DNA of 64,000 nt from Bacteroidota bacterium (GCA_018698135.1 JABINZ010000028.1:3698-67697); one strand, 5' to 3'. Shown: positions 1,231-31,425, counted from the first letter of the stretch. Notes: generated by a model from the letters alone, not told the origin. Numbers and translations: made by a program.

Positions 1231-1330
1231 CTGTCTATAATTATTTTTAAAAGATCATATGAAACGCGAATCGATTTATTATCAACATACTTTTGTTCAC
1301 GAACTCGCTTCATCATTCAATTTTGCACAA

Positions 1331-1864: not shown

Positions 1865-4101
1865 GATACTACCTCCTTCTTAGGATCGTTAACCAAGAAT
1901 GTTACAAAGTTGCCTCTCATACCTGTACCTCCCATAATTGGATCAACAATAACACGTGTAATTAATTCAGAGTCTGAAGCACCTTTTCCATGTGCTCTTG
2001 TCATTTTTTTATTGTTATGACCAAATCCATGAACCATATAAATAGAGTCCCAACGAATCCGTTCAGTTACCCGAACTTTTATTGGGAAAGTCGACACCAC
2101 ATCATCCTGGTTTTTCAACCAAATGTATTGATCGTTTTTCAAGCCCCATTCATTGGCAACTCTTGGATTAATCCAACAGCTGTTTTCATCCATTAAGTCT
2201 GTTAAGTTTTCATTATTTGCTGTTCTACCAAATGTATGCATAGGTGCACGTCCATAGATTAAACGATAGAAACCCTGAGGCGGTTCCATATGTTTGGTGT
2301 AATTGGGCAGTGGATCGTAACCTGCAGCAGCAAACTGGTTTGAGTAAAGTTCAATTTTCCCAGTTGGCGTATTAAATATCATTTCTGGCAAACCTTCTGT
2401 GAAAAATAAATCATCGTATTTACGATCATATTTTTTCACACCCAACTTCTTCATTTCTTCCAAGGAACTACCAGCTTCTTTTAATTGCCAATCCAATACT
2501 TCCTCTATAGACTCATATTTGAAATACTCCTCTAAACCGAGTTTCAGCCCTAGCTCTTTTGCAATCCACCAACCAGGTTTGGAATCATATTTAGGCGGGA
2601 CAGCAGGCATTCTCAGAGCTAAATATGGGTCTCTGTGTTGAGAAGCTCTAACAAAATCGTATCTTTCTAAATAGGTACATTCTGGGAAGATGACATCAGC
2701 ATAGCCTGTAATCTCAGCAGGCATCGTATCTATAACTACAATCAAGTCAAGGCTTTGAATAGCCTTAAGTGTAGTTTTTCTATCTGGTAGCGTTTTAATA
2801 AGGTTTGTGCCATACACTATCCAAGCGCGGAAGGAGCATTCTCTTTCAACTGTAGGAATAGTTGCTTCACACATTGCATTCGAGAGTGCTAAGCCAGCCA
2901 GTTTATATTTATCTGGAAAGGCGTCTCTCCAGCTCTTTGTTGGTTTTGGGTAGTCTGGATGAGGGAAAGATGGAACCTTGACTTTTTCAGGTTTATAAAA
3001 GCCACCTCTTTGTCCCCAACTTCCTAATAATGCATTCAGCATAGCCATTAGTCTTGATCGCTGTGTATCATCACCATACCAGGTTGCATGACGGCCAGGA
3101 TGTATAATAACTGAAGGTGACGCATTAAACATTTCCTTTGCAGTTTTGCGAATAACATCAGGTTTGATGGTGGTAATACCATAAGCCCACTCTGGCGTCA
3201 TATTCTTAACATGTTTCTTCAGATCTTCAAATCCGTAGGTGTATTTCTCAACAAATTCTTTGTCAAACCAACCTTCATAGATAAGCACATGAATCCAAGC
3301 CAATAACAAAGCATTGTCGGTAGCAGGTTTAATAGGGAGCCAGAATTTTGATTTACTAGCAGCTGTTGAAAATCTTGGATCAACTGTAATGATTGAAGCT
3401 CCACGATCAATTGCTTCCGCCATCTCCTGAACTGGTCCGTTATGCATATTTTCACCCAAATGAGAGCCAATTAATACCAAACATTTGGTATCACGAATAT
3501 CACAGGGTTCTGGTGAACCAATTGATTCACCAAAAGTTCCTACAAAACCTACTTCGCGAGGACCACGACACTGGCCATATGAAGGGGCAGATACATTCGC
3601 TGAACCATAGGCATTAAGCATGTGGGAGAATTGTTTTCCTCCTGTACCATGATTAAATAAAGCAACACACTCAGGTCCGTATTTACGCTTAATTTTCTGC
3701 ATTTTTTCAGCAACATAATCAAGCGCTTCATCCCAGCTAACTTCTTTAAACTCTTGTTTACCACGAACATTGGTTCTGATCATTGGTTTTTTCAACCTGT
3801 CTTCATCTGAATACATGCCAACTCCACCAGTTCCTCTTGGGCATAAGCGCCCATTGCAATGAGGATCGTCTTCATGTCCGATTATCTTTTTAATGTTGTT
3901 ATTTTCATCTGTATAAACCCAACCGGCACATTTCCAGAAACAAACTTCACAATAAGTGGGTGTTCTTCTTAACCCATCTTCTGAAATTTCACTATTGCTT
4001 TTTGCGCTTGCAGACGCCCACTTTACCAAAGGTGGTGTTATTGCTGCAACTGCAACTCCGGCTGAAGATATTTTAATAAAATCTCTTCTGTTAGTTTTCA
4101 T
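1861..4101 (-). CDS. Tat-exported bis-MGD molybdopterin oxidoreductase catalytic subunit, polysulfide/thiosulfate-reductase-like (PsrA/PhsA family)
   Basis: 746 aa. Twin-arginine leader MKTNRRDFIKISSAG. N-terminal FS0 motif CEVCFWKC...CPRG. Operon context with FeS and NrfD subunits. Substrate cannot be assigned from sequence alone. Confidence 0.8.
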   Translation of the reverse strand: MKTNRRDFIKISSAGVAVAAITPPLVKWASASAKSNSEISEDGLRRTPTYCEVCFWKCAGWVYTDENNNIKKIIGHEDDPHCNGRLCPRGTGGVGMYSDEDRLKKPMIRTNVRGKQEFKEVSWDEALDYVAEKMQKIKRKYGPECVALFNHGTGGKQFSHMLNAYGSANVSAPSYGQCRGPREVGFVGTFGESIGSPEPCDIRDTKCLVLIGSHLGENMHNGPVQEMAEAIDRGASIITVDPRFSTAASKSKFWLPIKPATDNALLLAWIHVLIYEGWFDKEFVEKYTYGFEDLKKHVKNMTPEWAYGITTIKPDVIRKTAKEMFNASPSVIIHPGRHATWYGDDTQRSRLMAMLNALLGSWGQRGGFYKPEKVKVPSFPHPDYPKPTKSWRDAFPDKYKLAGLALSNAMCEATIPTVERECSFRAWIVYGTNLIKTLPDRKTTLKAIQSLDLIVVIDTMPAEITGYADVIFPECTYLERYDFVRASQHRDPYLALRMPAVPPKYDSKPGWWIAKELGLKLGLEEYFKYESIEEVLDWQLKEAGSSLEEMKKLGVKKYDRKYDDLFFTEGLPEMIFNTPTGKIELYSNQFAAAGYDPLPNYTKHMEPPQGFYRLIYGRAPMHTFGRTANNENLTDLMDENSCWINPRVANEWGLKNDQYIWLKNQDDVVSTFPIKVRVTERIRWDSIYMVHGFGHNNKKMTRAHGKGASDSELITRVIVDPIMGGTGMRGNFVTFLVNDPKKEVVS

Positions 4102-4291
4102 ATACTAATATTAACTAATTCGTACTTTATTTACATATATAAACATCCGCAATTATATATATGTCTGAGATAGTAAAATCAATAATTTACTTGTTATTCA
4201 ACAACATAAATATAGTTATATATTATGAATCAAATTCATATATGTGTTTTATTTCGAGAATTAAGCACTTTAAACTCTTTAAACTGCATAT

Positions 4292-4876
4292 TCAGTTCTT
4301 TATCATCCTGAAACAATCAAAATCTGAAGGTGTATTTATGTTGAAGAACAAGTTTTTATTACGTAATAATTCGTCTTTCATGTCGACAAACTGTATGTTG
4401 ATAGAATCTTTCAAGATTCTATTCATTTTCAATATATTCTGTTTGATGTACTTATTCAGTGTTTTTATGAAATTTTTTGAATAAATACCAACGAGTGGCT
4501 CTACATGTTGGCCATGAACAGGAATAGTAGCATCAAAGTTACTTTTATGCGATAAAAGCAAATGGTCAATTAAAGCTGCATCAACAAAGGGTGTATCACA
4601 ACTTATCACAATATTGTAGTCTGTATTCGAATAATTTAATCCAGTCAAAATACCAGCAGCTGGTCCTATATCTTTAATTATGTCGGGAATGACTGGATAG
4701 TTAAATTGCTTGTAATTAGTATTATTGGAACAAATAATTATTTGGTCAGCATATGGCTTAAGAATACTAATAGCATTTTCCATTAATGATTTTCCATCAA
4801 ACTTCAAAAGCCCCTTATCCTTCCCCATTCGACTACTCTTACCGCCACATAATATGATCCCATTTACTTTACCCAT
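4292..4876 (-). CDS. mobA: Molybdenum cofactor guanylyltransferase
   Basis: 194 aa. N-terminal NGIILCGGKSSRMGKDKGLL nucleotide-binding motif typical of MobA. Lies directly upstream of the molybdoenzyme operon. Confidence 0.8.
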   Translation of the reverse strand: MGKVNGIILCGGKSSRMGKDKGLLKFDGKSLMENAISILKPYADQIIICSNNTNYKQFNYPVIPDIIKDIGPAAGILTGLNYSNTDYNIVISCDTPFVDAALIDHLLLSHKSNFDATIPVHGQHVEPLVGIYSKNFIKTLNKYIKQNILKMNRILKDSINIQFVDMKDELLRNKNLFFNINTPSDFDCFRMIKN

Positions 4877-4894
4877 GAACTAATGTTTCTTCTC

Positions 4895-4902
4895 CAAAAT
4901 TA
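4895..4902 (-). promoter_or_regulatory. Bacteroidota-type -7 promoter box (TAnnTTTG) for mobA
   Basis: Minus strand reads TAATTTTG. 18 nt separate it from the ATG at 4876. Confidence 0.35.
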
Positions 4903-4961
4903 CATTAAAATATAATTCAACTTTAGTTGAGGATGTTTTATTGTTATACAACAAGAATTCT

Positions 4962-4969
4962 TATTTTTG
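4962..4969 (+). promoter_or_regulatory. Bacteroidota-type -7 promoter box (TAnnTTTG) for the Crp/Fnr gene
   Basis: TATTTTTG, 21 nt before the ATG at 4991. Confidence 0.4.
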
Positions 4970-4990
4970 TGAACAATTATTAATAATTAG

Positions 4991-5704
4991 ATGAGTAAAT
5001 TTTCGTGTAATGACAATGTAAGTTGCCATGAATGCCTAAATAAAGATAGTTCACTATTCACCCACATTTCAACTCAGCACAAAGACTTTATTAATACAGC
5101 TAAAGTTCATTGTGAGTTCAAGAAAGGTGAAACTATTTTCAAGGAAGGCATGAAACCAACTGGGCTAATTTGCTTGAATCAAGGAAAGGTTAAAATTTTT
5201 AAAGAGGGAATTGGAGGGAAAGAGCAAATTATTCGTTTTGCACGCCCTATTCAGCTCATTGGTTTTAGGGCCATGTTTGCTGAAGGTAATTACATGTCCT
5301 CAGCAGTTGCAATTGAAGATTCAAGAGTTTGCCATATTGATAAGGAGAAGGTTTTTGAGGTTGTTCATAAGGACAATGAATTAGCCCTTAAAATAATCAG
5401 ACGATTAGCTTATGAATTGGGTGATGCCAAAACCCGTATTGTTAATCTAACCCAAAAACATGTTAGAGGTAGACTAGCTGAAGCATTAATCATTTTGCAC
5501 GACACCTATGGTGACAATCTGGTAGATGGATATATGGATGTTTCGATTGGCAGAAATGATTTGGCCGATCTTTCAAATATGACAACTTCAAATGCTAGCC
5601 GAACACTATCAGCATTTGCTGATGAGGGATTACTTATGACACAAGGCCGAAAAATCAAAATTCTAAAACTTAAAGATATAGCACGAATAAGCGAATACGG
5701 TTGA
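4991..5704 (+). CDS. Crp/Fnr-family transcriptional regulator with N-terminal Cys triad
   Basis: cNMP-binding-like beta-roll followed by a C-terminal HTH (SNMTTSNASRTLSAF). N-terminal C6-x5-C12-x2-C15, plus Cys near residues 61 and 113. Confidence 0.8.
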   Translation: MSKFSCNDNVSCHECLNKDSSLFTHISTQHKDFINTAKVHCEFKKGETIFKEGMKPTGLICLNQGKVKIFKEGIGGKEQIIRFARPIQLIGFRAMFAEGNYMSSAVAIEDSRVCHIDKEKVFEVVHKDNELALKIIRRLAYELGDAKTRIVNLTQKHVRGRLAEALIILHDTYGDNLVDGYMDVSIGRNDLADLSNMTTSNASRTLSAFADEGLLMTQGRKIKILKLKDIARISEYG

Positions 5705-5706: not shown

Positions 5707-6234
5707 TCAATCAACTAACTTTTTGCATTTTGTGCAGAGCTTTTGTGTTTTTTGATCTATATCTTCAACATACGTACTCGATAGCATCACACAGGTTGGA
5801 TTATGGCAATGTAATAATCCAAATGTATGACCTAACTCATGAATAATTATTTTTTTTAGTCGACTTATCAGTAACTCTTCATCTTGTGGCATGCCATAAT
5901 GTTCATTTCGAAGCCTATAGAGTGAGGCTATTCCTGAATTACCATTTAGTATGGCCTGACCAAAAATAAAAGTGAGTATCGGAATAAATAAATCGACCCG
6001 AAATATGCCTATTTTTTTGATATCAGGTGATAAAAACATACTATCAATTTCTTCCAATAACTTGTTCCCATCATACTGCCGTCTTGTCGAATCATAAAAT
6101 TCACTCAATTCAATATGACTTTCCTCGATATCAATCCTACATTGAAACTCATTTGATACATCAACAGCGACCTGTTCAAGAAAATTCTTCTCGAAATGTC
6201 CATATGTAATCAATAAAATGCTATGTTTATTCAA
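5707..6234 (-). CDS. amzA: Archaemetzincin-type zinc metallopeptidase (family M54)
   Basis: HELGHTFGLLHCHNPTCVM...CTKC fits the archaemetzincin signature HExxHxxGxxxCxxxxCxM...CxxC. Confidence 0.7.
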   Translation of the reverse strand: MNKHSILLITYGHFEKNFLEQVAVDVSNEFQCRIDIEESHIELSEFYDSTRRQYDGNKLLEEIDSMFLSPDIKKIGIFRVDLFIPILTFIFGQAILNGNSGIASLYRLRNEHYGMPQDEELLISRLKKIIIHELGHTFGLLHCHNPTCVMLSSTYVEDIDQKTQKLCTKCKKLVD

Positions 6235-6329: not shown

Positions 6330-7673
6330 TTATTTTTTTTTGCGCTTTAAATCATATTTCTTGATCTTGTTATAAAGCGTCACTCTATCAACTTTTAATA
6401 CTTTTGCAGAACGTGAAATATTCCAATCATATTTTGATAGAATTTGTAAAATGTATTTTTTCTCAAGATCCTCTAAACTTTCCGTGTGATTAGTAATGCT
6501 ATCTTCTTCGAAAGGCAAATCTTTTTTACGAATTTCCTTACCATTACCAACCACTATTGCTCGCTCAATCATATTTTCAAGTTCGCGAACATTGCCAGGA
6601 AAAGGATAAGTTTCAAGTCGGTGAAGCACAGCTTTATCAATAGATATTATACCCCTACTCATTGATGTACAATATTTTGTTATAAAATAATCTACCAGTA
6701 AAGGAATATCTTCAATTCTATCGCGCAATGGAGGAATATGGATATTAACAACATTCAAACGATAAAACAGATCCTCTCTAAAAGTTCCATTATTAACCAT
6801 TTTCTTCAAATCCTTATTTGTAGCACAAATAACTCTAAAGTCAGATTCTATCTCTTTATTTCCGCCAACTCGTACAAGTTTCTTAGTTTCTAACACCCGC
6901 AATAATTCAATTTGCATTTTAGTAGAAATAGTTGCTATTTCATCCAGAAAAATAGTTCCTCCATCTGCCATCTCAAAACGCCCCTTTCTATTAAACATAG
7001 CACCAGTAAATGCTCCTTTTTCATGTCCGAACAATTCACTTTCCAACAAACTTTCTGTAAGTGCGCCACAATGAACACTGACCAAAGGAAAAAACTTTCG
7101 CTGAGAATTGGAATGAACTGCTCTGGCAATAAGCTCTTTTCCTGTACCACTTTCTCCGGTAATTATGACTGGAGAATTTGACTGTGCAACGCGTTCAACT
7201 TCTTTTAACACCTTAATCATAGGTTTGCTTCGACCAATAAGATCTTCAACGTTTTCCAGTGCAACAACCTTTCTTTTCAAGGATTCATTTTCTGAAACCA
7301 AGGCAATTTGATTAGCCGCATTCCGGATCAAATGGGAGAGATCATCCGGATCAAAAGGTTTTGTAATGTAATCATAAGCTCCATCTTTCAATGCCTGTAC
7401 AGCTGTTGAAACAGATGCAAAAGCTGTCATAATAATTACGATGGAGTTTTTATTAAAAGCTTTAATACGTCTATGCATTTCCAAACCATCCATTCCAGGC
7501 ATTTTAATATCTGCCAGAATAATGTCAAAATCCTTCGATTCAAGAATAGATAATGCTTGCTTTGCATTCTCAGCACGGTCCACCTGATAGCCGTCTTCAA
7601 TGAACCAGTTAAATAATGAATCTCTTACCGATTCCTCATCGTCTACGATTAAAATTGAAATGTTTGCTACCAT
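6330..7673 (-). CDS. Sigma-54-dependent response regulator (NtrC family)
   Basis: Receiver domain (LIVDDE...DIILADIKMPGMDG). AAA+ domain with Walker A GESGTGKE and the GAFTGA loop. C-terminal Fis-type HTH. 9 nt downstream of the kinase gene. Confidence 0.9.
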   Translation of the reverse strand: MVANISILIVDDEESVRDSLFNWFIEDGYQVDRAENAKQALSILESKDFDIILADIKMPGMDGLEMHRRIKAFNKNSIVIIMTAFASVSTAVQALKDGAYDYITKPFDPDDLSHLIRNAANQIALVSENESLKRKVVALENVEDLIGRSKPMIKVLKEVERVAQSNSPVIITGESGTGKELIARAVHSNSQRKFFPLVSVHCGALTESLLESELFGHEKGAFTGAMFNRKGRFEMADGGTIFLDEIATISTKMQIELLRVLETKKLVRVGGNKEIESDFRVICATNKDLKKMVNNGTFREDLFYRLNVVNIHIPPLRDRIEDIPLLVDYFITKYCTSMSRGIISIDKAVLHRLETYPFPGNVRELENMIERAIVVGNGKEIRKKDLPFEEDSITNHTESLEDLEKKYILQILSKYDWNISRSAKVLKVDRVTLYNKIKKYDLKRKKK

Positions 7674-7682: not shown

Positions 7683-9347
7683 TTAACTTTTTATTAGGGG
7701 TAATATTATCGATATTGTGGTTCCCGTCCCTAATTCAGACTCCACTTCTAAATTACCATTGTGGCTTTTAATAATACCATGTACAATTGCCAGTCCTAGT
7801 CCAATGCCGCTGGTTTTCTGCTTGGCAGAGAAAAATGGTTCAAAAACATGAGGAATATCATCAGCTGCAATACCAACACCATTATCTGTGATTTCAAGAA
7901 CTATTTTCTCGTTATCAAGGTTTGATGTTTTCATGATAATTTCACCATTTTCAGTAACAGCTTCTAAGGCATTTAAAAGAATAGCCACACAAGCTTGTTT
8001 TATCTGATTCTCACTACAATGTATTGTATCAAATTTGGCTGTAAAATCAGTATGCATGCTAATACCGCATATTTTCATTTGGTGTGACATTAAATTGAAA
8101 GCATCGGCAACAATTTCATGTAAATGCTTGTTAGCATATTCCTGCTGATCTTTTTTTGAGAATTCAAGCAAACCTTTGACAATGTCTCCACAGCGTTTTG
8201 TTTCGTTTTCAATGACCTTTAAATATTTTAATATGGGCAATTTAATAGTTTCATCAAGATCCAGCTTGTTTAATTGTTTGTAGATCAATTTGGTGTATGT
8301 GAGTACACCCGACAAAGGATTATTAATTTCGTGAGCAACTGAAGAGGATAATTTGCCTAGAGATGCAATTCGTTCCACATGAATTAATTCATTCTGAATT
8401 TCAGATAATTCTTCTGATTTTTTTTGAACTTTATACTCTAATTGTTGCGACCAGTTCTGCAGCTCAATGGAAGCAGATTGAAGATTGTCAAGCATTTCAT
8501 TAAATGCTTTTGAAACCATCCTCATATCATTTAATTGATGTGACTTAATTTCCAGGCGTGTGCTTTTATCGCCCTTGGAAACGGCTTCACTTGCTTTTAT
8601 AATAGCATTTAACGGATTTTTGATATTTTTTCTTGTAAAAAAAAGCAGCAATGTTAGCAAGAAAAAAGTTGTAATTATTGCCAAAATATAGGATCTATTC
8701 AAATTAGCATCCAATTCTTCTAAAGGAATCCTAATGACAAATGAACCCAAAACATCTTCATTATTATTATGTGCATGACAAGATGCAGTGTAACAAGATT
8801 TCTGATTTAAAATAGGTGATTTTATCAGAAGGAGTCTGCTGTTATGATCCAATTGACTCATACTGCATTCGCTCTCGACATTAATAATTCTGAAAGACTT
8901 CTCATCACGTGTAAACATGGTCGTAATATCTTCGTGACATTTTATGCAATTTGGATCGTTGTGGCCTGATTCATCTTCAGAAAATGAGGAATAAACAAGC
9001 TTTTCCTGATTATCATACATATTCACATCCTGTATTCCAGGCATCTCATTAATTATATTGAGCATATTAGTTAATGCTGTTTTATCATTTTCCAGCATAT
9101 ACTCATATAAAGCTCCTTCAACAAACATGCACACATTATTTCCACTTTGCTGAATGATATTCTCCATGTATTCCTTGTTCACAGTTCTAAAAATGATACC
9201 AAAGGATAAAAGTAAAAAAACAGCCAATATCGCCAGTATAATTACCGACTGACCATATATGGATGAATAAAAGTTGAAATATTTTTTGAAAAACGAACTT
9301 ATTATGTTCCTTTTATTAATTGAGAATTTAAACAAAGCCATTGCCAA
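7683..9347 (-). CDS. Sensor histidine kinase (TM - periplasmic Cys/haem-motif domain - TM - HAMP - HisKA - HATPase)
   Basis: H-box SSVAHEINNPL. G-box GIGLGLAIVHGII. HAMP region after the second TM. Periplasmic loop carries C134-IK-C137-H138 (nt 8934-8948) and C185-YTAS-C190-H191 (nt 8775-8795). Confidence 0.85.
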   Translation of the reverse strand: MAMALFKFSINKRNIISSFFKKYFNFYSSIYGQSVIILAILAVFLLLSFGIIFRTVNKEYMENIIQQSGNNVCMFVEGALYEYMLENDKTALTNMLNIINEMPGIQDVNMYDNQEKLVYSSFSEDESGHNDPNCIKCHEDITTMFTRDEKSFRIINVESECSMSQLDHNSRLLLIKSPILNQKSCYTASCHAHNNNEDVLGSFVIRIPLEELDANLNRSYILAIITTFFLLTLLLFFTRKNIKNPLNAIIKASEAVSKGDKSTRLEIKSHQLNDMRMVSKAFNEMLDNLQSASIELQNWSQQLEYKVQKKSEELSEIQNELIHVERIASLGKLSSSVAHEINNPLSGVLTYTKLIYKQLNKLDLDETIKLPILKYLKVIENETKRCGDIVKGLLEFSKKDQQEYANKHLHEIVADAFNLMSHQMKICGISMHTDFTAKFDTIHCSENQIKQACVAILLNALEAVTENGEIIMKTSNLDNEKIVLEITDNGVGIAADDIPHVFEPFFSAKQKTSGIGLGLAIVHGIIKSHNGNLEVESELGTGTTISIILPLIKS

Positions 9348-9451: not shown

Positions 9452-11083
9452 TTAGTCTTTTTTAATGGGTATTGTTATTGAAATCGTTGTTCCTTTACCA
9501 AAATCTGAATTAATACCTATTGTAGCATTATGACTTTTAACAATGCCATGAACAATAGCCAGACCCAATCCTATGCCATTTGTTTTTTGTTTAGCTGAGA
9601 AAAATGGCTCGAAAACATGCTTTAAATCTTCAGCCGATATGCCTACTCCATTATCTTTGATTTCTATTTTTATACTATCTTCATCAGGATTTGTTGTTTT
9701 CATTAGAATTTCAGCACTTTCGAGTACTGCTTCTGACGCATTTAACAACAAGGCAAGACATGCCTGCTTTATTTGGTTTCTATTGCAGTGGATTAAATCA
9801 TTTTTAGCCGAGAAATCTGTTAAAAAACTAATATTACCAATTTTCATCTGATGAGACATTAATGCGTAGGACTCATCTAATATTTTGTGTAAATGTTTGG
9901 TTTCAAAATCTGAATCATCTTTTCTTGAAAATTCCAGTAAGCCCTTTACTATTTCGCCACATCGCTTCGTTTCAGTTTCAATCACTTTCAAATATTTTGA
10001 CATAGATAGTTTTGTGATTTCATCTAAATCCGGTTTAGCTAATTGCTTCTGCACTAACTTGGTATAGGTTAAAACTCCAGCCAAGGGGTTATTAATCTCA
10101 TGAGCAACTGAGGATGATAATTTACCTAATGATGCAATCCTTTCTACATGAACAAGTTCATGCTGCATTTCTGAAAGTTCTTCTGTTTTTTGCTGAACTT
10201 TATATTCAAGCTGTTGTGACCAGTTTTTCAATTCATTGGTTGCTGCTTGAAGATTGTCAAGCATTTCGTTAAAAGCATTTGATACCATTCTCAAATCATA
10301 GAGCGTATTGGGTTTTATCTCCAGTCTGGTGCTTTTATCACCTTTAGAAACAGCCCTACTTGCTTGCACTATCGAATTTAAAGGAATGATTATCTTTCTT
10401 CTTGAAATATAAATTATTGAAAATAGTAGTAGGATAACAGCAAAAGCAGCCAAAATAAAAAATTCCGATGAAGACTTCTCAACTGCTGTGTCCAAATCAT
10501 TTAAGGGAATTCGAATGACGAACGATCCCAATACCTCATCACTTCTACTATGCGCATGACATGAACTGGTATAGCATGATTTTTCATTTAATATGGGTGA
10601 GTGTATGAGCAGGAGTCTATAATCATAATTTTTTTGACTCATATCACATTCGCTATCAAAACTTAATATCCTGAACGACTTCTCTTTCTGTGGAAACATG
10701 TCTTTGATGTTGGAATGACAATCTTTGCAATTAGGGTTGTTATGACCGATGGAGTCTGATTCAAATGTTGAGTGAACCAGATTATAATGATGATCATAAA
10801 TATTAACATCTTCAATACCTGGTAATGTATTAATTAGATCCAAGGTATTTTGCAATGAGCTTCTGTCATTTTCAAGCATAGAATGATACAAAGCTCCTTC
10901 TACAATGGACCCAATATTATTTCCATTTTGCTTGATTACGGTATCTAAATATTTTTCATTAACAGATCGGAAAATAATACCAAAAGAGATGAAGACAAAT
11001 ACAGACAAAATTGTTATGGTAATAACTACCTGCCCATAAATTGTTAATCGGAATTTTAATATTTTTCTAAAGAAACTAATCAA
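9452..11083 (-). CDS. Sensor histidine kinase, paralogue of 7683..9347
   Basis: Collinear with the neighbouring kinase along its full length. Same H-box and G-box. Periplasmic C119-KD-C122-H123 and C170-YTSS-C175-H176. Confidence 0.85.
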   Translation of the reverse strand: MISFFRKILKFRLTIYGQVVITITILSVFVFISFGIIFRSVNEKYLDTVIKQNGNNIGSIVEGALYHSMLENDRSSLQNTLDLINTLPGIEDVNIYDHHYNLVHSTFESDSIGHNNPNCKDCHSNIKDMFPQKEKSFRILSFDSECDMSQKNYDYRLLLIHSPILNEKSCYTSSCHAHSRSDEVLGSFVIRIPLNDLDTAVEKSSSEFFILAAFAVILLLFSIIYISRRKIIIPLNSIVQASRAVSKGDKSTRLEIKPNTLYDLRMVSNAFNEMLDNLQAATNELKNWSQQLEYKVQQKTEELSEMQHELVHVERIASLGKLSSSVAHEINNPLAGVLTYTKLVQKQLAKPDLDEITKLSMSKYLKVIETETKRCGEIVKGLLEFSRKDDSDFETKHLHKILDESYALMSHQMKIGNISFLTDFSAKNDLIHCNRNQIKQACLALLLNASEAVLESAEILMKTTNPDEDSIKIEIKDNGVGISAEDLKHVFEPFFSAKQKTNGIGLGLAIVHGIVKSHNATIGINSDFGKGTTISITIPIKKD

Positions 11084-11137
11084 TTCCAGTAAGCATTATT
11101 CGATTTATACTAAAACCAAACCAAGAGCTAATACGTA

Positions 11138-11170
11138 TAAAATGGGTCTTTATCCCAAAGCCCCATTTTA
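11138..11170 (-). terminator. Possible terminator hairpin between the GcvH-like operon and the kinase genes
   Basis: TAAAATGGG / CCCATTTTA 9-bp stem with a 15-nt loop. The downstream tract is only weakly T-rich. Confidence 0.3.
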
Positions 11171-11295
11171 ACAAAGTTAATCATTTTATTAATGTAGAAA
11201 TAAAACAGGCTTCAAGGTATAATGTGCCTCAATTATCACACATTAAAGAATTGTTTATCGTTTCAGCTTATTAGAAACAAAAATCCAAATAATTG

Positions 11296-12006
11296 TTAAA
11301 CATTTAGAAATTCTGCTTGAAAATCATCCCATACCTCTTTTGGAAGCTCGGTCAGGATGTTATCACGAAGCTCACCTCCATCTTGCAGCACCATTAAGAC
11401 TGGTTCTGCAGCATATTTATTCATGGGGCTACCCATAACAAATGCCTTAAACCTATCCAACTCTTTTCTTGACCATTTTGTTGCTTCTTCAGCCAAAAAA
11501 TACCCACTGGTTTCTGCAATCCAATTTTTAGGCTTAATCTGATAAATCCAACCTGCATCATACGGATCATCATTAAGTAATTCTGGATTTTCAGCAAGCA
11601 TATAATTCGTATTAATTACCTCACCTGATATTGGTGAAAAAATACGGAGTTGCTTCCCATTTTGTTCAATTATCGTCAATAATTCCCCCTTTTTTATTTT
11701 CTCTCCAACATTTTTAAGCATCGAAAATTCAATTTTGCCTGTAATATGTTGTAGAAAATCATCCAAGCCAACTTTTGCATTTCCCGATTTTTCGAGAAAA
11801 GACCATGTATGGGTTTGATTATAGAATAATCCCTGAGGAATATTAAGAATTTTATCCGAGAGGTTTCCAATCACTTTTTGAATCTTTTTTGTTACTTGTT
11901 TAGAGGAGAATTTCCAGAAAACAATGAGAATTAATAAATATCCAATCACAAATATATATTCGATTCCCTTGGTATCAAATATATCTATTTTGCTAAAACC
12001 TTCCAT
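11296..12006 (-). CDS. Membrane-anchored GcvH-fold (glycine-cleavage H / lipoyl-carrier-like) protein
   Basis: One N-terminal TM (IEYIFVIGYLLILIVFW) followed by a Lys-rich flank. It then aligns by eye with E. coli GcvH (HTW...VGLDDF...G.I.F..L...G..I.KG...SPISGEV...PELLNDDPY.AGWIYQIKP). 22-nt overlap with the NrfD-like gene. Confidence 0.7.
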   Translation of the reverse strand: MEGFSKIDIFDTKGIEYIFVIGYLLILIVFWKFSSKQVTKKIQKVIGNLSDKILNIPQGLFYNQTHTWSFLEKSGNAKVGLDDFLQHITGKIEFSMLKNVGEKIKKGELLTIIEQNGKQLRIFSPISGEVINTNYMLAENPELLNDDPYDAGWIYQIKPKNWIAETSGYFLAEEATKWSRKELDRFKAFVMGSPMNKYAAEPVLMVLQDGGELRDNILTELPKEVWDDFQAEFLNV

Positions 12007-13250
12007 TTTTTTGCTTTTAAGTTTCCTTTTTCTAAAGTTTCAATATGTGTTTCCTTTGCTATCCAGCTAGGAGAATCTGTATAAACAGGCATTCTTCTTA
12101 CGATCCATCTAAATACTAATATTTGTACCATAATAACTGCTGCACTGACGACTACTTCCATCCAGGTAGGAAAGTGAATTGTGTTTTCGTACCAGTGGTA
12201 TGAAAAAGTGGAAATATTGAGCCTGTTTAAAATTATACCAAGAGCTGTCATGATAGCTGCAGTTCTAATAAGAAATATATTTAATCGCTTATAACCAATC
12301 ATAAATAAAGTAGCCGGTAAGGCAACAAATCCAATGATTTCAAGCAAATACCAATACCCCCAACTTGTATTTAAATACATTCCGTTTTTCTCATGCAATA
12401 AAACCAACAATGTCATAGCTAAATAAACGAACATGCTTATTGAGCAGGTTTTTGCTAATCCAGTTAACATGCTCTTATGAGAACTTTTAAATACAAACGA
12501 CATCAGATTTTTGAATACTTTTTGATTTATGCTCTCCAGAATAATGACCAATGATAATCCGGCAAAAATACTTGAGATGAAAAACAATATCGGTATGAAC
12601 TGGGAATACCATAAAGGATGAATCTTTGCCTTTGCCATTAGGAATAAAGCACCTAGTCCAGATTGGTGTAGAGTAGAAAGTGTAATTCCAAAAATCACAA
12701 CAGCTAAAGTTAATGAAACGGCAATTTTTCTTTGTTTTTTCAGACCTAGCCATTCGGTGACAGTTGGATAAAATTCAATAAACAAGGAGCCCATATATAG
12801 GATAAAATGCCATGCTACTAAAAACAGTACAGCACTCAATCCAAATGAATTCCCAATTATAGGATTGATAACTTTCCAGGGGCGTCCGAGATCCAACAAT
12901 AATGCACCTGCATAAAAAACATATGCCAATAAAGCATAAAGTACAGTTGCTCTTACTATTGGGCGATACTTTTCCATTCCTAGAATATAGACCAGAAATG
13001 TAACAACAAAAGCTCCTCCAGCAAAGGCTACTCCCGTAATTACGTTAAAATTAATCCATAAGCCCCAAGGTGCATCTTGAGAAGCATGTATTACAGCACC
13101 CAAACCTTTTGTAAATCTTATATAAAGAATTACAGCTGCTGCAATTATTGTTATTGCTGAAATAACATTAAATGGAGTTATTATTTTTCCTTTAGGTTTC
13201 AATTCATGTAACATGAATTTTATAACACCTGTTTTCTTTTCATTTTTCAT
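11985..13250 (-). CDS. NrfD/HybB/DsrP-like polytopic membrane subunit
   Basis: 421 aa, about 10 hydrophobic helices. Starts 1 nt after the Tat-FeS gene. Size and context match NrfD-family quinone-interacting subunits. Confidence 0.65.
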   Translation of the reverse strand: MKNEKKTGVIKFMLHELKPKGKIITPFNVISAITIIAAAVILYIRFTKGLGAVIHASQDAPWGLWINFNVITGVAFAGGAFVVTFLVYILGMEKYRPIVRATVLYALLAYVFYAGALLLDLGRPWKVINPIIGNSFGLSAVLFLVAWHFILYMGSLFIEFYPTVTEWLGLKKQRKIAVSLTLAVVIFGITLSTLHQSGLGALFLMAKAKIHPLWYSQFIPILFFISSIFAGLSLVIILESINQKVFKNLMSFVFKSSHKSMLTGLAKTCSISMFVYLAMTLLVLLHEKNGMYLNTSWGYWYLLEIIGFVALPATLFMIGYKRLNIFLIRTAAIMTALGIILNRLNISTFSYHWYENTIHFPTWMEVVVSAAVIMVQILVFRWIVRRMPVYTDSPSWIAKETHIETLEKGNLKAKKWKVLAK

Positions 13251-13251
13251 G

Positions 13252-14121
13252 TTAGTTCATTTTATCTTTTGCTATTTTGTTTTTTCTCTCTACCAGGGAA
13301 TTATTTAACCCAAGCAAAAAAGCTGGCCATAAGATTAGTACGGCTGGCACAGAGGATAGAAATGTTTTATTGTGTTCTGGATATGCTTTTGAACCTAGAT
13401 TGGTTTTAAGATCCAACTCCTCGAATGGAGCTGAAGCAAGATAAAGAATACCCGTGCCTCCCACTTCATGTTCTCCATAAATGCTGTGAACATATCGATC
13501 AGGGTTGGTGTATATCCGCTTGTTAGCCTCTTCCAATAAATCCCTTCTTTTTCCGAATTTCAAAGCATCATACAAACAAGAATCTACGCATGCAGGTATT
13601 CCTCCTTCTTTTACTAATTCGTAGCACATCCTGCACTTCTGAATTTTTGGATTCGGACTATTGTACTCAAATTTGGGAACATCAAAAGGACAAGCTATCA
13701 TGCAAGAACGACAGCCCATACACTTATCTTCCTGCCATATTACAGGGCCCTCAGGAGTTTTATACATGGCTTTTGTCAAACAGGCCGAAGCACACGCAGG
13801 ACTATTACAATGATTGCAGGCATGTCGGATGTACTGTTCTCCTTCTGAAGTTTCGTAACTATTAATAACAACGCGTGTTGTTTCATCAGTTTTTCGAACA
13901 AGACCTACTTCTGGAAAAGTCTTCGAATAGGGCAATTCATATTGATCAGAACAGGCGTATTCACAATTCTGACAAGCCATACATCGTGTTGAATCATATA
14001 AAATCCCATAAAATTCTATATCACTCGAGTCCTCTTTTTCAGCAGTTAAGCCTTTACCACATGCAAGTGTGGCACCGGTAACTCCCAATGTTCTTAAAAA
14101 ATTTCTTCGATTAATACCCAT
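13252..14121 (-). CDS. Tat-exported 4x[4Fe-4S] protein with C-terminal TM anchor (HybA/DsrO-like)
   Basis: Twin-arginine leader MGINRRNFLRTLG. Clusters CMACQNCEYAC, CNHCNSPACASAC, CMGCRSCMIACP and CRMC...CVDSC. C-terminal helix VPAVLILWPAFLLGL. Confidence 0.85.
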   Translation of the reverse strand: MGINRRNFLRTLGVTGATLACGKGLTAEKEDSSDIEFYGILYDSTRCMACQNCEYACSDQYELPYSKTFPEVGLVRKTDETTRVVINSYETSEGEQYIRHACNHCNSPACASACLTKAMYKTPEGPVIWQEDKCMGCRSCMIACPFDVPKFEYNSPNPKIQKCRMCYELVKEGGIPACVDSCLYDALKFGKRRDLLEEANKRIYTNPDRYVHSIYGEHEVGGTGILYLASAPFEELDLKTNLGSKAYPEHNKTFLSSVPAVLILWPAFLLGLNNSLVERKNKIAKDKMN

Positions 14122-14196
14122 TATTTTGATTTTTGTATTGTTAATAAATTCAATTCTTTACATAATATTAAATGGTTTGCTCGGGCTATTTGTATA

Positions 14197-14218
14197 CCTG
14201 ACATAAAGGTTTGTCAGG
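14197..14218 (-). terminator. Intercistronic hairpin (possible attenuator or partial terminator)
   Basis: CCTGACA / TGTCAGG 7-bp stem immediately after the stop of the 567-aa gene, inside the 100-nt gap before the FeS gene. No T-tract follows. Confidence 0.25.
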
Positions 14219-14221
14219 AAA

Positions 14222-15925
14222 TTACACGGTTCTTGTTTGTGCAGTATCGATAAATGAAGTTTGAAAATCTTCCCAAACTTCAGGACCAAGATTCTCCAGA
14301 ATTCCTTCGGTTAACTCACCTCCATCCTGAAGTACGATATGTGCGTAGTCTTTCGATTTTGGATTCAATGTTTCACCAAGAAAATCTCGAAGTCTGGAAA
14401 ACTCTTTACTCAACCATGCATTATATTTTTCTGTCATGATAAAAAACTTATTTTCTCTTTCCCAATTTGTTGGCTCAATTAAATAAACCCACCCATCTGT
14501 ATAAGGACTTGAATTTATTAAAGCTGAATTTGTGATAAGCTCCTTATTATATTCTTTAATAATTCCAGAAATAGGTGCGTAAATATTTATCTGCTTGCCG
14601 TTTTGGATGAGTGAAAGAATTTGGTCACCCTTTTTAACCTTATCTCCTGTATTCTTCAGTTTTAATCGAGTTATTGGCCCCGTTATTCGTTGCAGAAAAT
14701 CATCAATGCCCATTTGTACCAAGCCTTCTTTTTCCCTATGGGCCCATGTATGCGTTCTATCATATAAAATTCCCTCTGGAACCAATACTGTTTCTTTTGT
14801 AAAAACAGCTGCTAATTTGGATTTTGAAACAGATACTACGTCACTTCTATTTCTAAGAAAATTGAATCCAGCCAATACGATTAGGATCACAGCTAAATTC
14901 AATACCATAATTACGATTATCTTTAATGTAGAATTTGATGCTTTTTCAGTTATTGGACTTAAATTAATTTTAGTCTCCGCCAATTTATCTACATAAGAAC
15001 TTCGTTCGTTTATAACGAGATCTGTATATCCTGCGGGTAAAAAATACTTTTGGCCATCAACTAAAACCCACTTCAAAAAAGCAAGTTCAATCTCATTCTT
15101 TGGTTTAACTGGAGATATTGAATACAGGTTGTTGAATAATGATTTTGGATATTTACCAATCCATACTCCACGAGTGAAGACATTAAGGTCGGTGTAAATT
15201 TCTTCCATGTAGTCAAGCAGACCATTTCCATTCTTGTCAATGGGTAATAGTTTGATATGATCGACAATGTTTTGGCTATTTACATCTATTATATCAGTCA
15301 AATTACAAAAACCAATTGCGTAAGGATCATGTTGAACCGTGCGAATCAATTTTTTACTATTACCAATTTTCTGAGCATTAAACGATGATTTACTTGTATT
15401 CATAAAGCTTAATACCGTTGAAATAATAGATTCATCTTTAAGAATATAGCAATTGATTGGAGCATCGTGTCCGTTACCAAGTATTGATCCCCATGTACTT
15501 TCAACAGGATTATTGACAAGAGCTTTCATATCTTCAGCAGAAAGGCCTTGTTCATTCAATAATTCAATGAATGGGTTATCTGCATTGATGATTGGTACAA
15601 TTACATGTCGACCAATAATTGTTTTCCAAGCATCCTTATCTTTTGGATCAAAATAATTATAATCAGAGCTTAGGATAATGCTGTTTCGGTCACTGAAAAT
15701 TCTATCTTTTGTTGTTTCAGTTTCTTTGATAACATTAAATTTAATCCCCGGATTCTGTATACAAAATTCATCGGTTAACTGGCATGCAAGTGCATATAAA
15801 TCTGCTGTACAATAAATATCTATTGTACCTTTCATTTCAGAGATATTCTTGAGGTCATTTGTGCTGCTGACATGATTACTGATTAGCAGAAAAAAACCAA
15901 TAAATAAAAAGACTATATTTTTCAT
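14222..15925 (-). CDS. Fusion protein: signal peptide + PstS-like periplasmic binding domain + 1 TM + C-terminal GcvH-fold domain
   Basis: 567 aa. Signal peptide MKNIVFLFIGFFLLISNHVSS. Residues about 35-300 resemble PBP_like_2/PstS (IDIYCTADL...PYAIGF...GKYP...LKWVL..GQ). TM at about 335-355. C-terminal part is paralogous to 11296..12006 (THTW...GIDDFLQRITG...APISG...SPYTDGWVYLIEP). Confidence 0.65.
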   Translation of the reverse strand: MKNIVFLFIGFFLLISNHVSSTNDLKNISEMKGTIDIYCTADLYALACQLTDEFCIQNPGIKFNVIKETETTKDRIFSDRNSIILSSDYNYFDPKDKDAWKTIIGRHVIVPIINADNPFIELLNEQGLSAEDMKALVNNPVESTWGSILGNGHDAPINCYILKDESIISTVLSFMNTSKSSFNAQKIGNSKKLIRTVQHDPYAIGFCNLTDIIDVNSQNIVDHIKLLPIDKNGNGLLDYMEEIYTDLNVFTRGVWIGKYPKSLFNNLYSISPVKPKNEIELAFLKWVLVDGQKYFLPAGYTDLVINERSSYVDKLAETKINLSPITEKASNSTLKIIVIMVLNLAVILIVLAGFNFLRNRSDVVSVSKSKLAAVFTKETVLVPEGILYDRTHTWAHREKEGLVQMGIDDFLQRITGPITRLKLKNTGDKVKKGDQILSLIQNGKQINIYAPISGIIKEYNKELITNSALINSSPYTDGWVYLIEPTNWERENKFFIMTEKYNAWLSKEFSRLRDFLGETLNPKSKDYAHIVLQDGGELTEGILENLGPEVWEDFQTSFIDTAQTRTV

Positions 15926-15999: not shown

Positions 16000-16015
16000 T
16001 TCAACTACAATGCCA
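16000..16015 (-). promoter_or_regulatory. Weak sigma-54 -24/-12-like element upstream of the GcvH-like operon
   Basis: Minus strand reads TGGCATTGTAGTTGAA, against the consensus TGGCAC-N5-TTGC. The -24 half and the spacing fit, but the -12 GC is GA. About 75 nt upstream of the ATG at 15925. Confidence 0.2.
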
Positions 16016-16491
16016 TTGACAAAATACGAACTCAAAGCATTGATTTACTATGCATTACGAATACACTTGTTTAATTTATTTACAAAAAGAATTGATGAAT
16101 ATATTTACAGTTAAGTAATTTATTAGCCCGAAAGCCTTACCCGCCATACTATACAATAGTTTTGTATATTTTTTCAACAGCTGCTTATTAATTCAACAGT
16201 GTCGTTGTTTTAACAAGACCCTGAATTTTAAACAATAATCAGATATAAAACTAGTTTACAGGTAGTTATACACACTACAATTTAGATAATAGCAAATATT
16301 ATTTCTTAACATAAACAAATACCATAACTAGTGATTAGACTGATATTAGTACGATTCTATTAATTCTGAGAATGTGAAAATTATTTTTAGAAAAGTGTTT
16401 TCCTTGTTTAAAAAAATCAAAATAGAAGAGAAATTTTTCTAAAACTGCAAGGATATATTTTTTACTTATTAATATCTTTTTTTACAAAAAA

Positions 16492-16522
16492 AAGGCTCAT
16501 TTGATATGATCAAATAAGCCTT
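16492..16522 (-). terminator. Rho-independent terminator of the rnf operon
   Basis: On the minus strand: AAGGCTTATTTGAT-cat-ATCAAATGAGCCTT (13/14 bp stem) followed by TTTTTTTT. Lies 20 nt after the rnfA stop. Confidence 0.7.
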
Positions 16523-16542
16523 CAATATGTAGAAATTGATTT

Positions 16543-30121: not shown

Positions 30122-30136
30122 CTTTCTACATTAAGA

Positions 30137-30685: not shown

Positions 30686-30696
30686 TTTTTTCCTCT

Positions 30697-31395: not shown

Positions 31396-31425
31396 TTTTA
31401 ATGATTTTATCGTCCAAAAAATTAA

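Follow-up and report, generated by a model that had tools for sequence, protein, structure and literature searches.

Anaerobic Bacteroidota share an apparently undescribed gene cluster that joins a HybAB/Hmc-like membrane pair to two membrane-tethered GcvH-fold proteins and a sigma-54-type two-component system

In the Desulfovibrio Hmc and Nhc systems (HmcABCDEF; NhcABCD), a Tat-targeted, tail-anchored 4x[4Fe-4S] protein, a 10-TM NrfD-type protein and a single-helix subunit are encoded in this order, and E. coli hydrogenase-2 has the same two-subunit architecture and topology in HybA/HybB. The tail-anchored FeS/HybB-like pairs of a 2024 survey occur in contexts that also encode c-type cytochromes or a periplasmic hydrogenase; these include quinol oxidase modules with octahaem cytochromes, in which an orphan pair has no conserved flanks except a periplasmic haem protein, and one example that adjoins a sigma-54-interacting regulator (PMC10924467). 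In TtrSR-TtrBCA, an FeS/NrfD-type module lies beside its own kinase and regulator, and a PBP-fold periplasmic domain belongs to the system. Here we compare these systems with a locus in a 64-kb window (the whole stretch of Bacteroidota DNA that was analysed), which encodes the following proteins:

g1, 14222-15925, minus strand: 567 aa (ORF call)
g2, 13252-14121, minus strand: 289 aa (ORF call)
g3, 11985-13250, minus strand: 421 aa (ORF call), overlapping g4 by 22 nt
g4, 11296-12006, minus strand: 236 aa (ORF call)
Sensor histidine kinase 1, 9452-11083, minus strand: TM, periplasmic domain, TM, HAMP, HisKA, HATPase
Sensor histidine kinase 2, 7683-9347, minus strand: paralogue of kinase 1 that shares its motifs; sensor domain sCache_4-like
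NtrC-type response regulator, 6330-7673, minus strand: receiver, Sigma54_activat, HTH_8 (Fis-type HTH)
M54 (archaemetzincin-type) zinc metallopeptidase, cytoplasmic, 5707-6234, minus strand: conserved final gene of the cluster

A preliminary description of this DNA had proposed a unit of four co-directional genes, g1 to g4, and our ORF calls returned the same spacings of 100, 1 and -22 nt. The true unit is, however, larger, at 7-8 genes: downstream of g4 follow two kinases, a sigma-54 activator and an M54 peptidase, the last of which had gone unmentioned. The order g1-g2-g3-g4-HK(-HK)-RR-M54, with one or two kinases per locus, is kept in almost all complete loci from 80 species-level genomes, and hence lies far above chance. 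It was also seen in further contigs beyond these genomes, and a Marinimicrobia contig (L089) has the same order with one additional gene inserted; synteny of the four families across genomes is thus supported. No other family recurs in the flanks (maximum 6/80 loci). Upstream, the unit is bounded by the following element:

Intrinsic terminator after rnfA, 16491-16523, minus strand: 15-bp stem, then a T-run

The rnf genes, which had been counted as part of the context, lie beyond this strong terminator and adjoin the cluster in only 1/80 other genomes; both observations place rnf outside the unit. The cluster is a self-contained gene system of anaerobic Bacteroidota and their relatives. The preliminary description knew of no such pairing of genes, and our literature search likewise found no published account; the cluster is apparently undescribed.

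We first consider the membrane pair. g2 carries Fer4_11 and TAT_signal domains (Pfam) and is a Tat-exported 4x[4Fe-4S] protein, tail-anchored at its C-terminus; its RR motif and 16 Cys are invariant in 56 orthologues, and its closest solved structure is FdnH (1kqf_B, E 4e-25). g3 matches NrfD (PF03916, E 1e-10, 42 bits against a cut-off of 25.8) and has 10 hydrophobic segments, with the N- and C-termini both on the basic (cytoplasmic) side. The Pfam score, the 10 TM segments and the adjoining 16-Cys g2 together assign g3 to the NrfD/PsrC family, as a cofactor-less subunit. Among NCBIfam models, the top matches are HmcB for g2 (300 bits, equivalog cut-off 420) and HmcC for g3 (368 bits, cut-off 550), followed by HybA and HybB (208 and 211 bits); g2 is thus HmcB/HybA-like and g3 HmcC/HybB-like. 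The Tat-FeS protein and its 10-TM NrfD-type neighbour are therefore as originally described.

g4 extends this likeness. A short tail on the periplasmic side (MEGFS..DIFDTKGIEY) precedes its HmcD-like TM, which is followed by the GcvH-fold domain in the cytoplasm; a natural fusion (P0260) supports this N-out topology. The HmcD profile weakly matched the TM in 17/23 members (best E 6e-4), at 17 bits where the cut-off is 34. Since the g4 TM resembles HmcD and the order is B-C-D as in hmc, g2 to g4 resemble the Hmc/Nhc "BCD" module minus the cytochrome. Unlike Hmc/Nhc, the cluster encodes no multihaem cytochrome of the HmcA/NhcA kind, HmcA being the periplasmic 16-haem protein of Hmc, and neither the cytochrome b HmcE nor the cytoplasmic CCG (HdrD-like) protein HmcF was found in it at any locus. 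Moreover, its D-like helix is fused to a GcvH-fold domain, a second TM-GcvH protein has been added, the scores lie under the equivalog cut-offs, and the hosts are Bacteroidota and Marinimicrobia rather than sulfate reducers.

g1 comprises a signal peptide, a periplasmic PstS-fold domain, a TM (residues 336-354), a cytoplasmic GcvH-fold domain and a C-terminal extension of ~60 aa. PBP_like_2 scored 22.5 bits, under the Pfam cut-off of 27, and the PstS fold was recovered from an AlphaFold2 model searched with Foldseek (4jwo, E 8e-16, TM 0.70). Acidic residues replace those of the phosphate loop, and an EF-hand-type loop, DKNGNGLLDYME, occupies residues 230-241. The PstS-like domain that had been proposed for g1 is thus upheld as a fold; it is nonetheless dispensable, as neither L010 nor the Marinimicrobia locus L089 has it. 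In contrast to TtrSR-TtrBCA, the PBP-fold domain sits on a structural single-pass protein and not on a kinase.

The operon encodes no catalytic partner, in agreement with the preliminary description. It lacks the molybdopterin subunit of TtrSR-TtrBCA; HybO/HybC, the periplasmic NiFe hydrogenase subunits of hydrogenase-2, are neither present in the cluster nor conserved nearby; and no multihaem cytochrome gene lies in the operon or recurs across 80 loci. Enzymes of these kinds are the usual partners of HybA/HybB and NrfC/NrfD pairs, and the module might be the membrane anchor or electron entry for an enzyme encoded elsewhere (a periplasmic hydrogenase, a molybdoenzyme, e.g. Psr-like, or multihaem reductases), with the PstS-fold domain of g1 as a substrate- or metal-presenting subunit. 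Candidates do lie nearby: a Psr-like molybdoenzyme operon 7 kb downstream (238-4101), Rnf, two NiFe hydrogenases (the latter 13-30 kb away in the window), and multihaem cytochromes flanking the cluster in L001, L010 and L089. However, neither rnf nor psr nor the hydrogenase genes are conserved as neighbours among the 80 species genomes, and the Psr-like operon already encodes FeS and NrfD subunits of its own. Both window hydrogenases are of cytoplasmic types, one beside a NuoF-like subunit gene and the other beside HdrA-like proteins, whose genes are 30 kb off. Given also that the PstS-fold domain is absent from some lineages and has an acidic phosphate loop, we regard service to a remote enzyme as improbable.

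Next, we examined the GcvH-fold domains. Profile searches recovered GCV_H in both flanking proteins, as had been claimed (g1 residues 387-506, E 4e-25; g4 residues 61-177, E 9e-26; Pfam), and the fold is well kept (TM 0.92-0.94 to E. coli GcvH). g1 and g4 share most core motifs with GcvH, LbpA and GcvH-L (HxW, GxDDxxQ, SPxSG, NxxPYxxGW). They also share with each other the C-terminal extension of about 60 aa (ELxRFKDFL...LQDGGE...EVWxDFQ), which those proteins lack. GcvH is soluble and about 130 aa long, whereas g1 and g4 are membrane-anchored at their 567 and 236 aa; they score 81-89 bits against GcvH equivalog cut-offs of 116-117. In the profile alignment, an invariant Gly occupies the column of the canonical lipoyl-Lys, and the Lys of this family (K444 in g1, K118 in g4) stands at +1 with no indel. 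The hairpin-tip GK is present in 204/206 g1-type proteins, and the Lys after the turn in 205/206 (Arg in the other one). Among 144 g4-type proteins, 137 have the Lys, and the seven replacements are Arg (5), Asn (1) and Gln (1), some of them in complete clusters. The near-invariance of this Lys in g1-type proteins resembles that of a functional or modification site rather than a passive adaptor.

The preliminary description had pointed to LbpA, the GcvH-like lipoate carrier of sHdr systems. On that analogy, g1 and g4 would be membrane-tethered swinging-arm carriers of lipoate or a similar acyl group, through which dithiol/disulfide or acyl chemistry in the cytoplasm is connected with the quinone pool via the NrfD subunit. 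The preserved fold and the near-invariant tip Gly-Lys would suit such a role, and two carrier copies per complex recall multi-carrier systems. Nevertheless, the Lys is displaced by one residue from its canonical place; a one-residue shift of the target Lys reportedly abolished lipoylation of a lipoyl domain in the work of Wallis and Perham in 1994. Conservation does not extend to the Glu of the canonical ESVK motif, Cys is absent from the domains, the cluster encodes neither a haem-b nor a CCG subunit, and NrfD subunits have no transmembrane electron wire. Partner P/T/L proteins and SirTM genes are absent from the cluster, and none of LplA, LipB, LipA, LipS or the sHdr genes co-occurs at the 80 loci. 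The displaced Lys, the Arg variants and the missing ligase weaken the lipoate-carrier reading as judged from sequence, and we consider it quite unlikely. Membership of the cluster in an sHdr-LbpA system was rejected separately, shdr and lipoate-assembly genes not being among the recurrent flanks of the 80 loci.

The association with haem-motif kinases and a sigma-54 activator held across loci. The periplasmic domain of kinase 1 contains CxxCH, C146 and Cx4CH-x-H motifs, and CxxCH and Cx4CH-x-H are invariant in the sensor domains of 99 Bacteroidota sequences. The Marinimicrobia kinase keeps Cx4CH-x-H alone, so haem binding is not certain, and on these motifs the kinases are candidate haem-c sensors. 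They are the sole haem-motif proteins of the cluster, which differs in this respect from the surveyed octahaem-cytochrome modules, as it does in its two GcvH-fold membrane proteins and M54 peptidase. Upstream of g1 we noted two further elements:

Sigma-54-type -24/-12 promoter-like element TGGCATTGTAGTTGA, 16001-16015, minus strand: 90 nt 5' of the g1 start codon
Two CTGTTGAA repeats as enhancer-like (UAS) half-sites, 16171-16200, minus strand: 164 and 183 nt upstream of -24

The pattern TGGCA[CT]-N5-TTGA occurs upstream of g1 in 46/69 loci, compared with 0.2% of shuffles and 1/69 on the opposite strand, and has a single site in the whole 64-kb window; its -12 element is TTGA where the canonical one is TTGC. 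TGTTGAA/TTCAACA palindromes (consensus about GTGTTGAAT-N-ATTCAACAC) lie further upstream in most of 45 loci, at fixed promoter offsets of about -94/-84 and -184 to -155, and the 8-mer ATTCAACA is found in 38 of the 45; the copies in the window are degenerate. With a putative promoter, putative enhancers and an adjacent bEBP, the cluster fits the layout of a sigma-54-dependent two-component regulon. This bEBP is a further difference from the regulator of TtrSR-TtrBCA. In sum, the domains, the synteny, the lack of a partner and the regulatory link of the preliminary interpretation stand; its unit size and rnf context are revised, and its LbpA analogy is weak.

We tentatively favour, at less than even confidence, a menaquinone-linked module for periplasmic electron transfer that is inducible and uses the GcvH-fold domains as adaptors in the cytoplasm. 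Its core, made up of g2, g3 and the N-terminal helix of g4, would face the periplasm, interact with menaquinone and be of the HybAB or Hmc-Nhc "BCD" kind, any dedicated cytochrome or hydrogenase having been lost. Electrons may pass between menaquinone and a haem-c protein in the periplasm, which would be a cytochrome encoded elsewhere or else the sensor domains, with their haem motifs, of the kinases in the cluster. Transcription would start from the sigma-54 promoter with its enhancer sites; the neighbouring kinase(s) and NtrC-type regulator probably drive it when they perceive a redox or ligand signal in the periplasm. The single-pass g1 and g4 would place their GcvH-fold domains and family-specific C-terminal extension on the cytoplasmic face, presumably in an adaptor or regulatory capacity and not as classical lipoyl carriers; docking may be on the basic cytoplasmic tails of g3/g2, on the kinase or on the M54 peptidase.

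Against an electron-transfer module, g1 clusters with the kinase, regulator and M54, not with g2/g3, in a crude mirror-tree analysis (partial correlations: g1-HK 0.48, g1-M54 0.46, g1-RR 0.33, g1-g3 -0.41). The whole might instead be an integrated redox-sensing signalling complex and no respiratory effector, with transcription as the sole output needed. g2/g3 would then equilibrate the kinase sensor haem(s) with the menaquinone pool, g1 and g4 would be single-pass co-sensors whose GcvH-fold domains influence the sigma-54 activator, M54 or the core of the kinase, and the PstS-fold domain of g1 would add a ligand input. Respiratory components feed kinases or bEBP regulators elsewhere, as in cbb3-PrrBA and in the reduction of NifL by the quinol pool. 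Here, kinase(s), regulator and M54 are inseparable from g1-g4 in two phyla, the regulator is the most conserved cluster protein (75-86% identity between loci), and no catalytic partner is present. At one locus (L078), g1, g4, kinase, regulator and M54 are present and g2/g3 are missing between them; a phage encodes a stand-alone g1/g4-type fusion, which would make sense as a hijacker of host signalling. Both hint that the GcvH-fold proteins act mainly with the signalling genes. However, L078 rests on a single MAG contig, and the mirror-tree signal is confounded by a deep g2/g3 lineage split. The conserved sigma-54 promoter/enhancer before g1-g4 is the classic layout of a regulated target operon, the regulator has no other known target, and we know of no case of kinase regulation by a GcvH-fold domain. 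A purely signalling complex is thus, in our judgement, somewhat unlikely.

A sensory-respiratory hybrid, which we rate as unlikely, would combine the two: a HybAB/HmcBCD-type quinone module whose direct periplasmic redox partner is the haem domain of its own kinases. The GcvH-fold domains would then be a novel cytoplasmic signalling or carrier element, possibly with a non-canonical Lys modification processed by the co-conserved M54. Were this so, a dedicated iron-sulfur wire would let the cell sense its menaquinone pool or the redox state of its periplasm, and the stand-alone phage copy would be a tool to manipulate that host circuit.

The core of the cluster consists of four minus-strand genes, here called g1 to g4, whose reading frames lie as the preliminary description had placed them, co-directional and with intergenic spacings of 100 nt (g1/g2), 1 nt (g2/g3) and –22 nt (g3/g4).

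Core genes of the cluster
14222–15925, minus strand: g1, 567 aa, PstS-fold domain, transmembrane segment and GcvH-fold domain
13252–14121, minus strand: g2, 289 aa, Tat ferredoxin
11985–13250, minus strand: g3, 421 aa, NrfD subunit
11296–12006, minus strand: g4, 236 aa, transmembrane segment and GcvH-fold domain

Pfam searches recovered GCV_H in both flanking proteins (g1, residues 387–506, E = 4e-25; g4, residues 61–177, E = 9e-26), Fer4_11 together with a TAT signal in g2, and an NrfD domain in g3, all in agreement with the earlier assignments. The PstS-like domain proposed for g1 fell below the Pfam threshold (PBP_like_2, 22.5 bits against 27), but searching the PDB with an AlphaFold2 model of g1 (mean pLDDT 75) predicted a PstS fold over residues ~34–320 (4jwo, E = 8e-16, TM 0.70). 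The modeled C-terminal domain superposes on E. coli GcvH (TM 0.92–0.94). In the public protein collection, g1 is present as a 451-aa product alone (P0121, 80% coverage), a sign that its start may have been called too far downstream; the 567-aa reading frame, with its signal peptide, is backed by an alignment with 26 homologues.

Both GcvH-fold domains carry most core GcvH motifs, are devoid of Cys, and share a family-specific C-terminal extension of ~60 aa (consensus ELxRFKDFL ... LQDGGE ... EVWxDFQxxF) that had no sequence match in Pfam or the PDB and over which AlphaFold2 confidence is low. The hairpin that bears the lipoyl-lysine in true H proteins reads x-Q-[DN]-G-K in the g1/g4 family. 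Since the spacing of the flanking anchors is identical in this family and in E. coli GcvH, the alignment is ungapped, with an invariant Gly in the canonical Lys column and the family Lys one residue later. In the AlphaFold2 model, N-G is predicted to lie in the hairpin turn and the Lys to open the next strand; the Glu of the ESVK motif is not conserved. We surveyed 350 family members (206 g1-type, 144 g4-type): the Lys is present in 205 of the g1-type and 137 of the g4-type proteins, the other g4-type proteins having Arg (five), Asn (one) or Gln (one), and the two Arg variants that were checked are both in complete clusters. The near-invariance of Gly-Lys indicates that the hairpin tip is functionally important. 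Wallis and Perham are said to have found in 1994 that moving the target Lys by one position abolished the lipoylation of lipoyl domains; on this precedent, the one-residue shift makes classical lipoylation doubtful. Furthermore, no lipoate ligase/synthase or sHdr gene recurs in the flanks of the best 80 loci. Given the displaced Lys, the scores below cut-offs and the lack of recurrent partner or ligase genes, we rejected membership in the canonical glycine cleavage system or among the LbpA lipoate carriers. The same evidence tells against the LbpA analogy of the preliminary description and, even with a shared fold and an almost universal Lys, renders the corresponding reading, that g1 and g4 are membrane-tethered lipoyl-type carriers, improbable.

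The periplasmic PstS-fold domain of g1, wherever it is present, contains an invariant EF-hand-type loop (DKNGNGxIDYxE), which in the window protein is the canonical Ca-binding loop DKNGNGLLDYME at residues 230–241. In place of the SGT phosphate (anion) loop of PstS it has acidic residues (NDES), which suggests that the ligand is not phosphate or that the Ca site has a purely structural role. Locus L010, from another genome (g1 = 312 aa), and Marinimicrobia do without the domain, which is thus accessory. Its absence from some lineages, the NDES sequence and the sub-threshold Pfam score make a phosphate-binding PstS role for g1 unlikely.

Periplasmic enzymes are usually wired to the quinone pool through tail-anchored ferredoxin/NrfD pairs, and to our knowledge every described pair has a hydrogenase, molybdoenzyme or cytochrome partner. 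The twin-arginine motif and 16 Cys of g2 are invariant in 56 orthologues, and the protein ends in a C-terminal tail anchor. g3, for which no solved homologue was found by sequence, has ten hydrophobic segments, and its two termini are strongly basic and therefore expected to lie in the cytoplasm. In the NCBIfam ranking, g2 scored highest with HmcB (300 bits), then HybA (208 bits), and g3 with HmcC (368 bits), then HybB (211 bits), all below the equivalog cut-offs. The signal peptide of g1, followed by one transmembrane segment and a basic stretch, places its GcvH-fold domain in the cytoplasm. g4 begins with 14 residues, one transmembrane segment and a basic stretch. A natural fusion (P0260), in which a signal peptide and PstS-like domain are joined straight to a g4-type 'TKGIEY'-transmembrane-GcvH part, supports a periplasmic location for the g4 tail and a cytoplasmic one for the GcvH-fold domain of g4.

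In 17 of 23 members, the N-terminal helix of g4 matched a 38-residue HmcD profile, though with scores under the cut-off (best E = 6e-4), and g4 comes after the HmcC-like g3 as hmcD comes after hmcC. By helix and gene order, g2-g3-g4(N) therefore resembles the B-C-D part of Hmc/Nhc complexes; the cluster has no multihaem cytochrome A, cytochrome b (E) or CCG protein (F). It also differs from the described ferredoxin/NrfD pairs in having no hydrogenase, molybdoenzyme or cytochrome partner; what it adds is a set of haem-motif kinases, a sigma-54 activator, an archaemetzincin (M54 peptidase) and, facing the cytoplasm, two membrane-tethered domains of the H-protein fold. A survey published in 2024 places Tat tail-anchored ferredoxin/HybB-like pairs in four contexts, namely Hyd-2, octahaem cytochrome modules, Hmc and periplasmic FeFe hydrogenase (PMC10924467), and a review of NrfD-like subunits recognizes Nhc, Hmc and HybB groups (PMC8076601); neither mentions GcvH-fold partners. 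A full-text literature search found no published description of the g1-g4-kinase-regulator-M54 cluster, in keeping with the earlier remark that no described complex was known to pair membrane-anchored GcvH-like domains with such a module.

Searches with g1 and g4 returned 1,921 and 1,457 protein clusters at 90% identity, respectively, or about 1,500–1,900 in metagenomes. A profile search of 1.8 billion representatives yielded 381 clusters with E < 1e-30, and the best 150 of these showed only two architectures, of ~235–245 aa (g4 type) and ~540–590 aa (g1 type), plus fragments and short variants. A scan in which each species was represented by a single genome confirmed 338 stretches; the top 80, all from MAGs, were compared by tblastn with the window proteins. 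These 80 loci are almost all labeled Bacteroidota (Bacteroidales, Prolixibacteraceae, Mariniphaga, Draconibacterium, Tangfeifania, Lentimicrobiaceae, Rikenellaceae), with two labeled Chlorobiota and Omnitrophica. The hosts are anaerobic Bacteroidales, Prolixibacteraceae and Marinilabiliales, and also Marinimicrobia, from sediments, groundwater and stratified waters. The order g1-g2-g3-g4-kinase(-kinase)-sigma-54 regulator-M54 is found in nearly all loci of sufficient length, so the four families first grouped together are indeed syntenic; metagenome contigs show the same order. Identity to the window proteins was 75–86% for the regulator, 54–79% for g3, 51–80% for g2, 53–74% for g4 and 37–52% for g1. 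In Candidatus Marinimicrobia, the cluster comprises a short g1 (no PstS domain), g2, g3, g4, an extra gene for a degenerate soluble GcvH-like protein, kinase, regulator and M54. This order defines a cross-phylum core of two membrane-anchored GcvH-fold proteins, a ferredoxin, an NrfD subunit, a kinase, a bEBP response regulator and M54. The unit thereby extends to 7–8 genes, beyond the four first noted. In this cross-phylum version (L089:7019–15198), the extra protein (10758–11516) is Cys-rich and without the Lys; immediately downstream, the opposite strand encodes multihaem cytochromes and a Ni_hydr_CYTB cytochrome b.

When all flanking ORFs were clustered, no family turned up in more than 6 of the 80 loci, and no catalytic partner is encoded in the operon, as had been noted before. 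The proposed link to rnf did not hold: among the best 80 loci an rnf operon adjoins the cluster in L004 only, and in the window a strong terminator (16491–16523) parts rnfA from the cluster. A Psr-like operon adjoins it in L005 only, where it follows the cluster. By the flanking-family count, the rnf, Psr-like operon, two NiFe hydrogenases and Hdr-like genes of the window were rejected as conserved partners. An anti-phage defense system was likewise rejected, PADLOC giving no matches apart from the generic bEBP domain. The module could instead be an anchor for an unlinked catalytic enzyme, in line with the usual role of ferredoxin/NrfD pairs; with no enzyme recurring nearby, we give this reading little credence.

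The Psr/Phs-like molybdopterin oxidoreductase operon lies together with mobA and a Crp/Fnr regulator in the 238–5704 region of the window.

Psr/Phs-like operon region
238–1230: 8-TM-type NrfD subunit
1331–1864: FeS subunit
1861–4101: Tat catalytic subunit
4292–4876: mobA
4991–5704: Crp/Fnr regulator

Elsewhere in the window (28670–33228 and 33726–38402), genes for the large subunit of a NiFe hydrogenase and for a NuoF-like FMN/FeS subunit, possibly of a Hox-type enzyme, lie close together, with hypF and additional ORFs after them. The other NiFe hydrogenase, of which both the large and the small subunit are encoded, adjoins two HdrA-like flavoproteins and an FeS protein (42757–50379), an Mvh/Hdr-like arrangement with no link to the cluster in other genomes. 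The ORF at 24267–25547 encodes Peptidase_M64 (IgA peptidase M64) and M64_N domains and is unrelated to g1-g4.

Several variant loci bear on the grouping of genes within the unit. In a Tangfeifania-labeled MAG (L078:8114–10777), g4 comes straight after g1 with no g2 or g3 in between, whereas kinase, regulator and M54 remain; the gap may reflect a genuine deletion or an error of assembly. A 454-aa g1/g4-type fusion (signal peptide, shortened PstS-like domain with EF-hand loop, g4-type transmembrane segment, GcvH-fold domain) stands alone on two phage-like contigs (L086:3328–4692 and L088:7293–8657); the phage might use it as an auxiliary gene or to manipulate its host. L086 has PHROG matches; L088, the IMG/VR contig UViG_3300022555_000086, carries SbcC-like, homing/HNH endonuclease, NAMPT and Lon-like protease genes. 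In a crude mirror-tree analysis, in which phylogeny is a confounder and the groupings are suggestive only, g2 paired with g3 (partial r 0.55), and g1 grouped with the kinase (0.48), M54 (0.46), g4 (0.41) and the regulator (0.33). Together with the L010 and Marinimicrobia variants, these observations hint that, in function, the GcvH-fold proteins stand closer to the genes for signaling and for the peptidase than to g2 and g3.

Each kinase carries, between two transmembrane segments, a ~165-aa periplasmic domain in which CxxCH (C119, C122, H123), C146 and Cx4CH-x-H (C170, C175, H176, H178) are invariant in 99 Bacteroidota sequences; the Marinimicrobia kinase retains Cx4CH-x-H only. Judging from these motifs, the likeliest cofactor would be haem c. 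The sensor domain of the second kinase, HK2, gave an sCache_4 match just above threshold. Putative haem-c sensors, and GcvH-fold proteins that lean toward the signaling genes, would suit an integrated quinone-pool or periplasmic redox sensor complex, the strongest of the rival readings, which we nonetheless consider unlikely.

Upstream of g1, the element TGGCA[CT]-N5-TTGA is found in 46 of 69 loci, as against 0.2% of shuffled sequences and 1/69 on the opposite strand. The window has a single such site in 64 kb, at 16001–16015, 90 nt before the g1 start codon. Palindromes GTGTTGAAT-N-ATTCAACAC occur at fixed offsets of about –94/–84 and –184 to –155 (aligned on this element), and the whole has the classical layout of a predicted sigma-54 promoter with tandem enhancer sites. 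A search for the consensus enhancer palindrome elsewhere in the window returned nothing, which says little because the copies upstream of g1 in the window have themselves diverged too far for the consensus to pick up. A sigma-70 promoter scan was not above chance and is not applicable to Bacteroidota, and the 617-nt leader and intergenic regions had no Rfam match to a riboswitch or RNA element at E ≤ 0.1. Because the cluster also encodes a conserved NtrC-type regulator, the most economical reading of the promoter layout is that g1-g4 are driven by the two-component system. Terminator prediction gave nothing in the interval from g4 to the kinases, so transcription may read through into them and allow autoregulation. 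Control by the kinases and the sigma-54 activator, as put forward in the preliminary description, thus agrees with synteny and with the promoter and enhancer motifs, but the regulatory link itself is one we infer.

Our preferred reading, held tentatively, is that the cluster encodes an inducible, menaquinone-linked, periplasm-facing electron-transfer module of the HybAB or Hmc-Nhc BCD type. It would exchange electrons with a haem-c protein of the periplasm, whether unlinked cytochromes or the sensor domains of the kinases; it would be expressed from the sigma-54 promoter under the control of the adjacent two-component system, and the GcvH-fold domains might serve as cytoplasmic adaptor or regulatory elements. 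The regulated, quinone-linked device envisaged at first fits this reading, but its lipoate-carrier analogy and rnf link do not. The cluster is apparently undescribed and widespread in anaerobic FCB-group bacteria. Working it out would fill a gap in the picture of energy metabolism or redox sensing in abundant anaerobes, and would assign a first function to a family of non-canonical GcvH-fold proteins now mislabeled 'glycine cleavage system protein H' by annotation pipelines.
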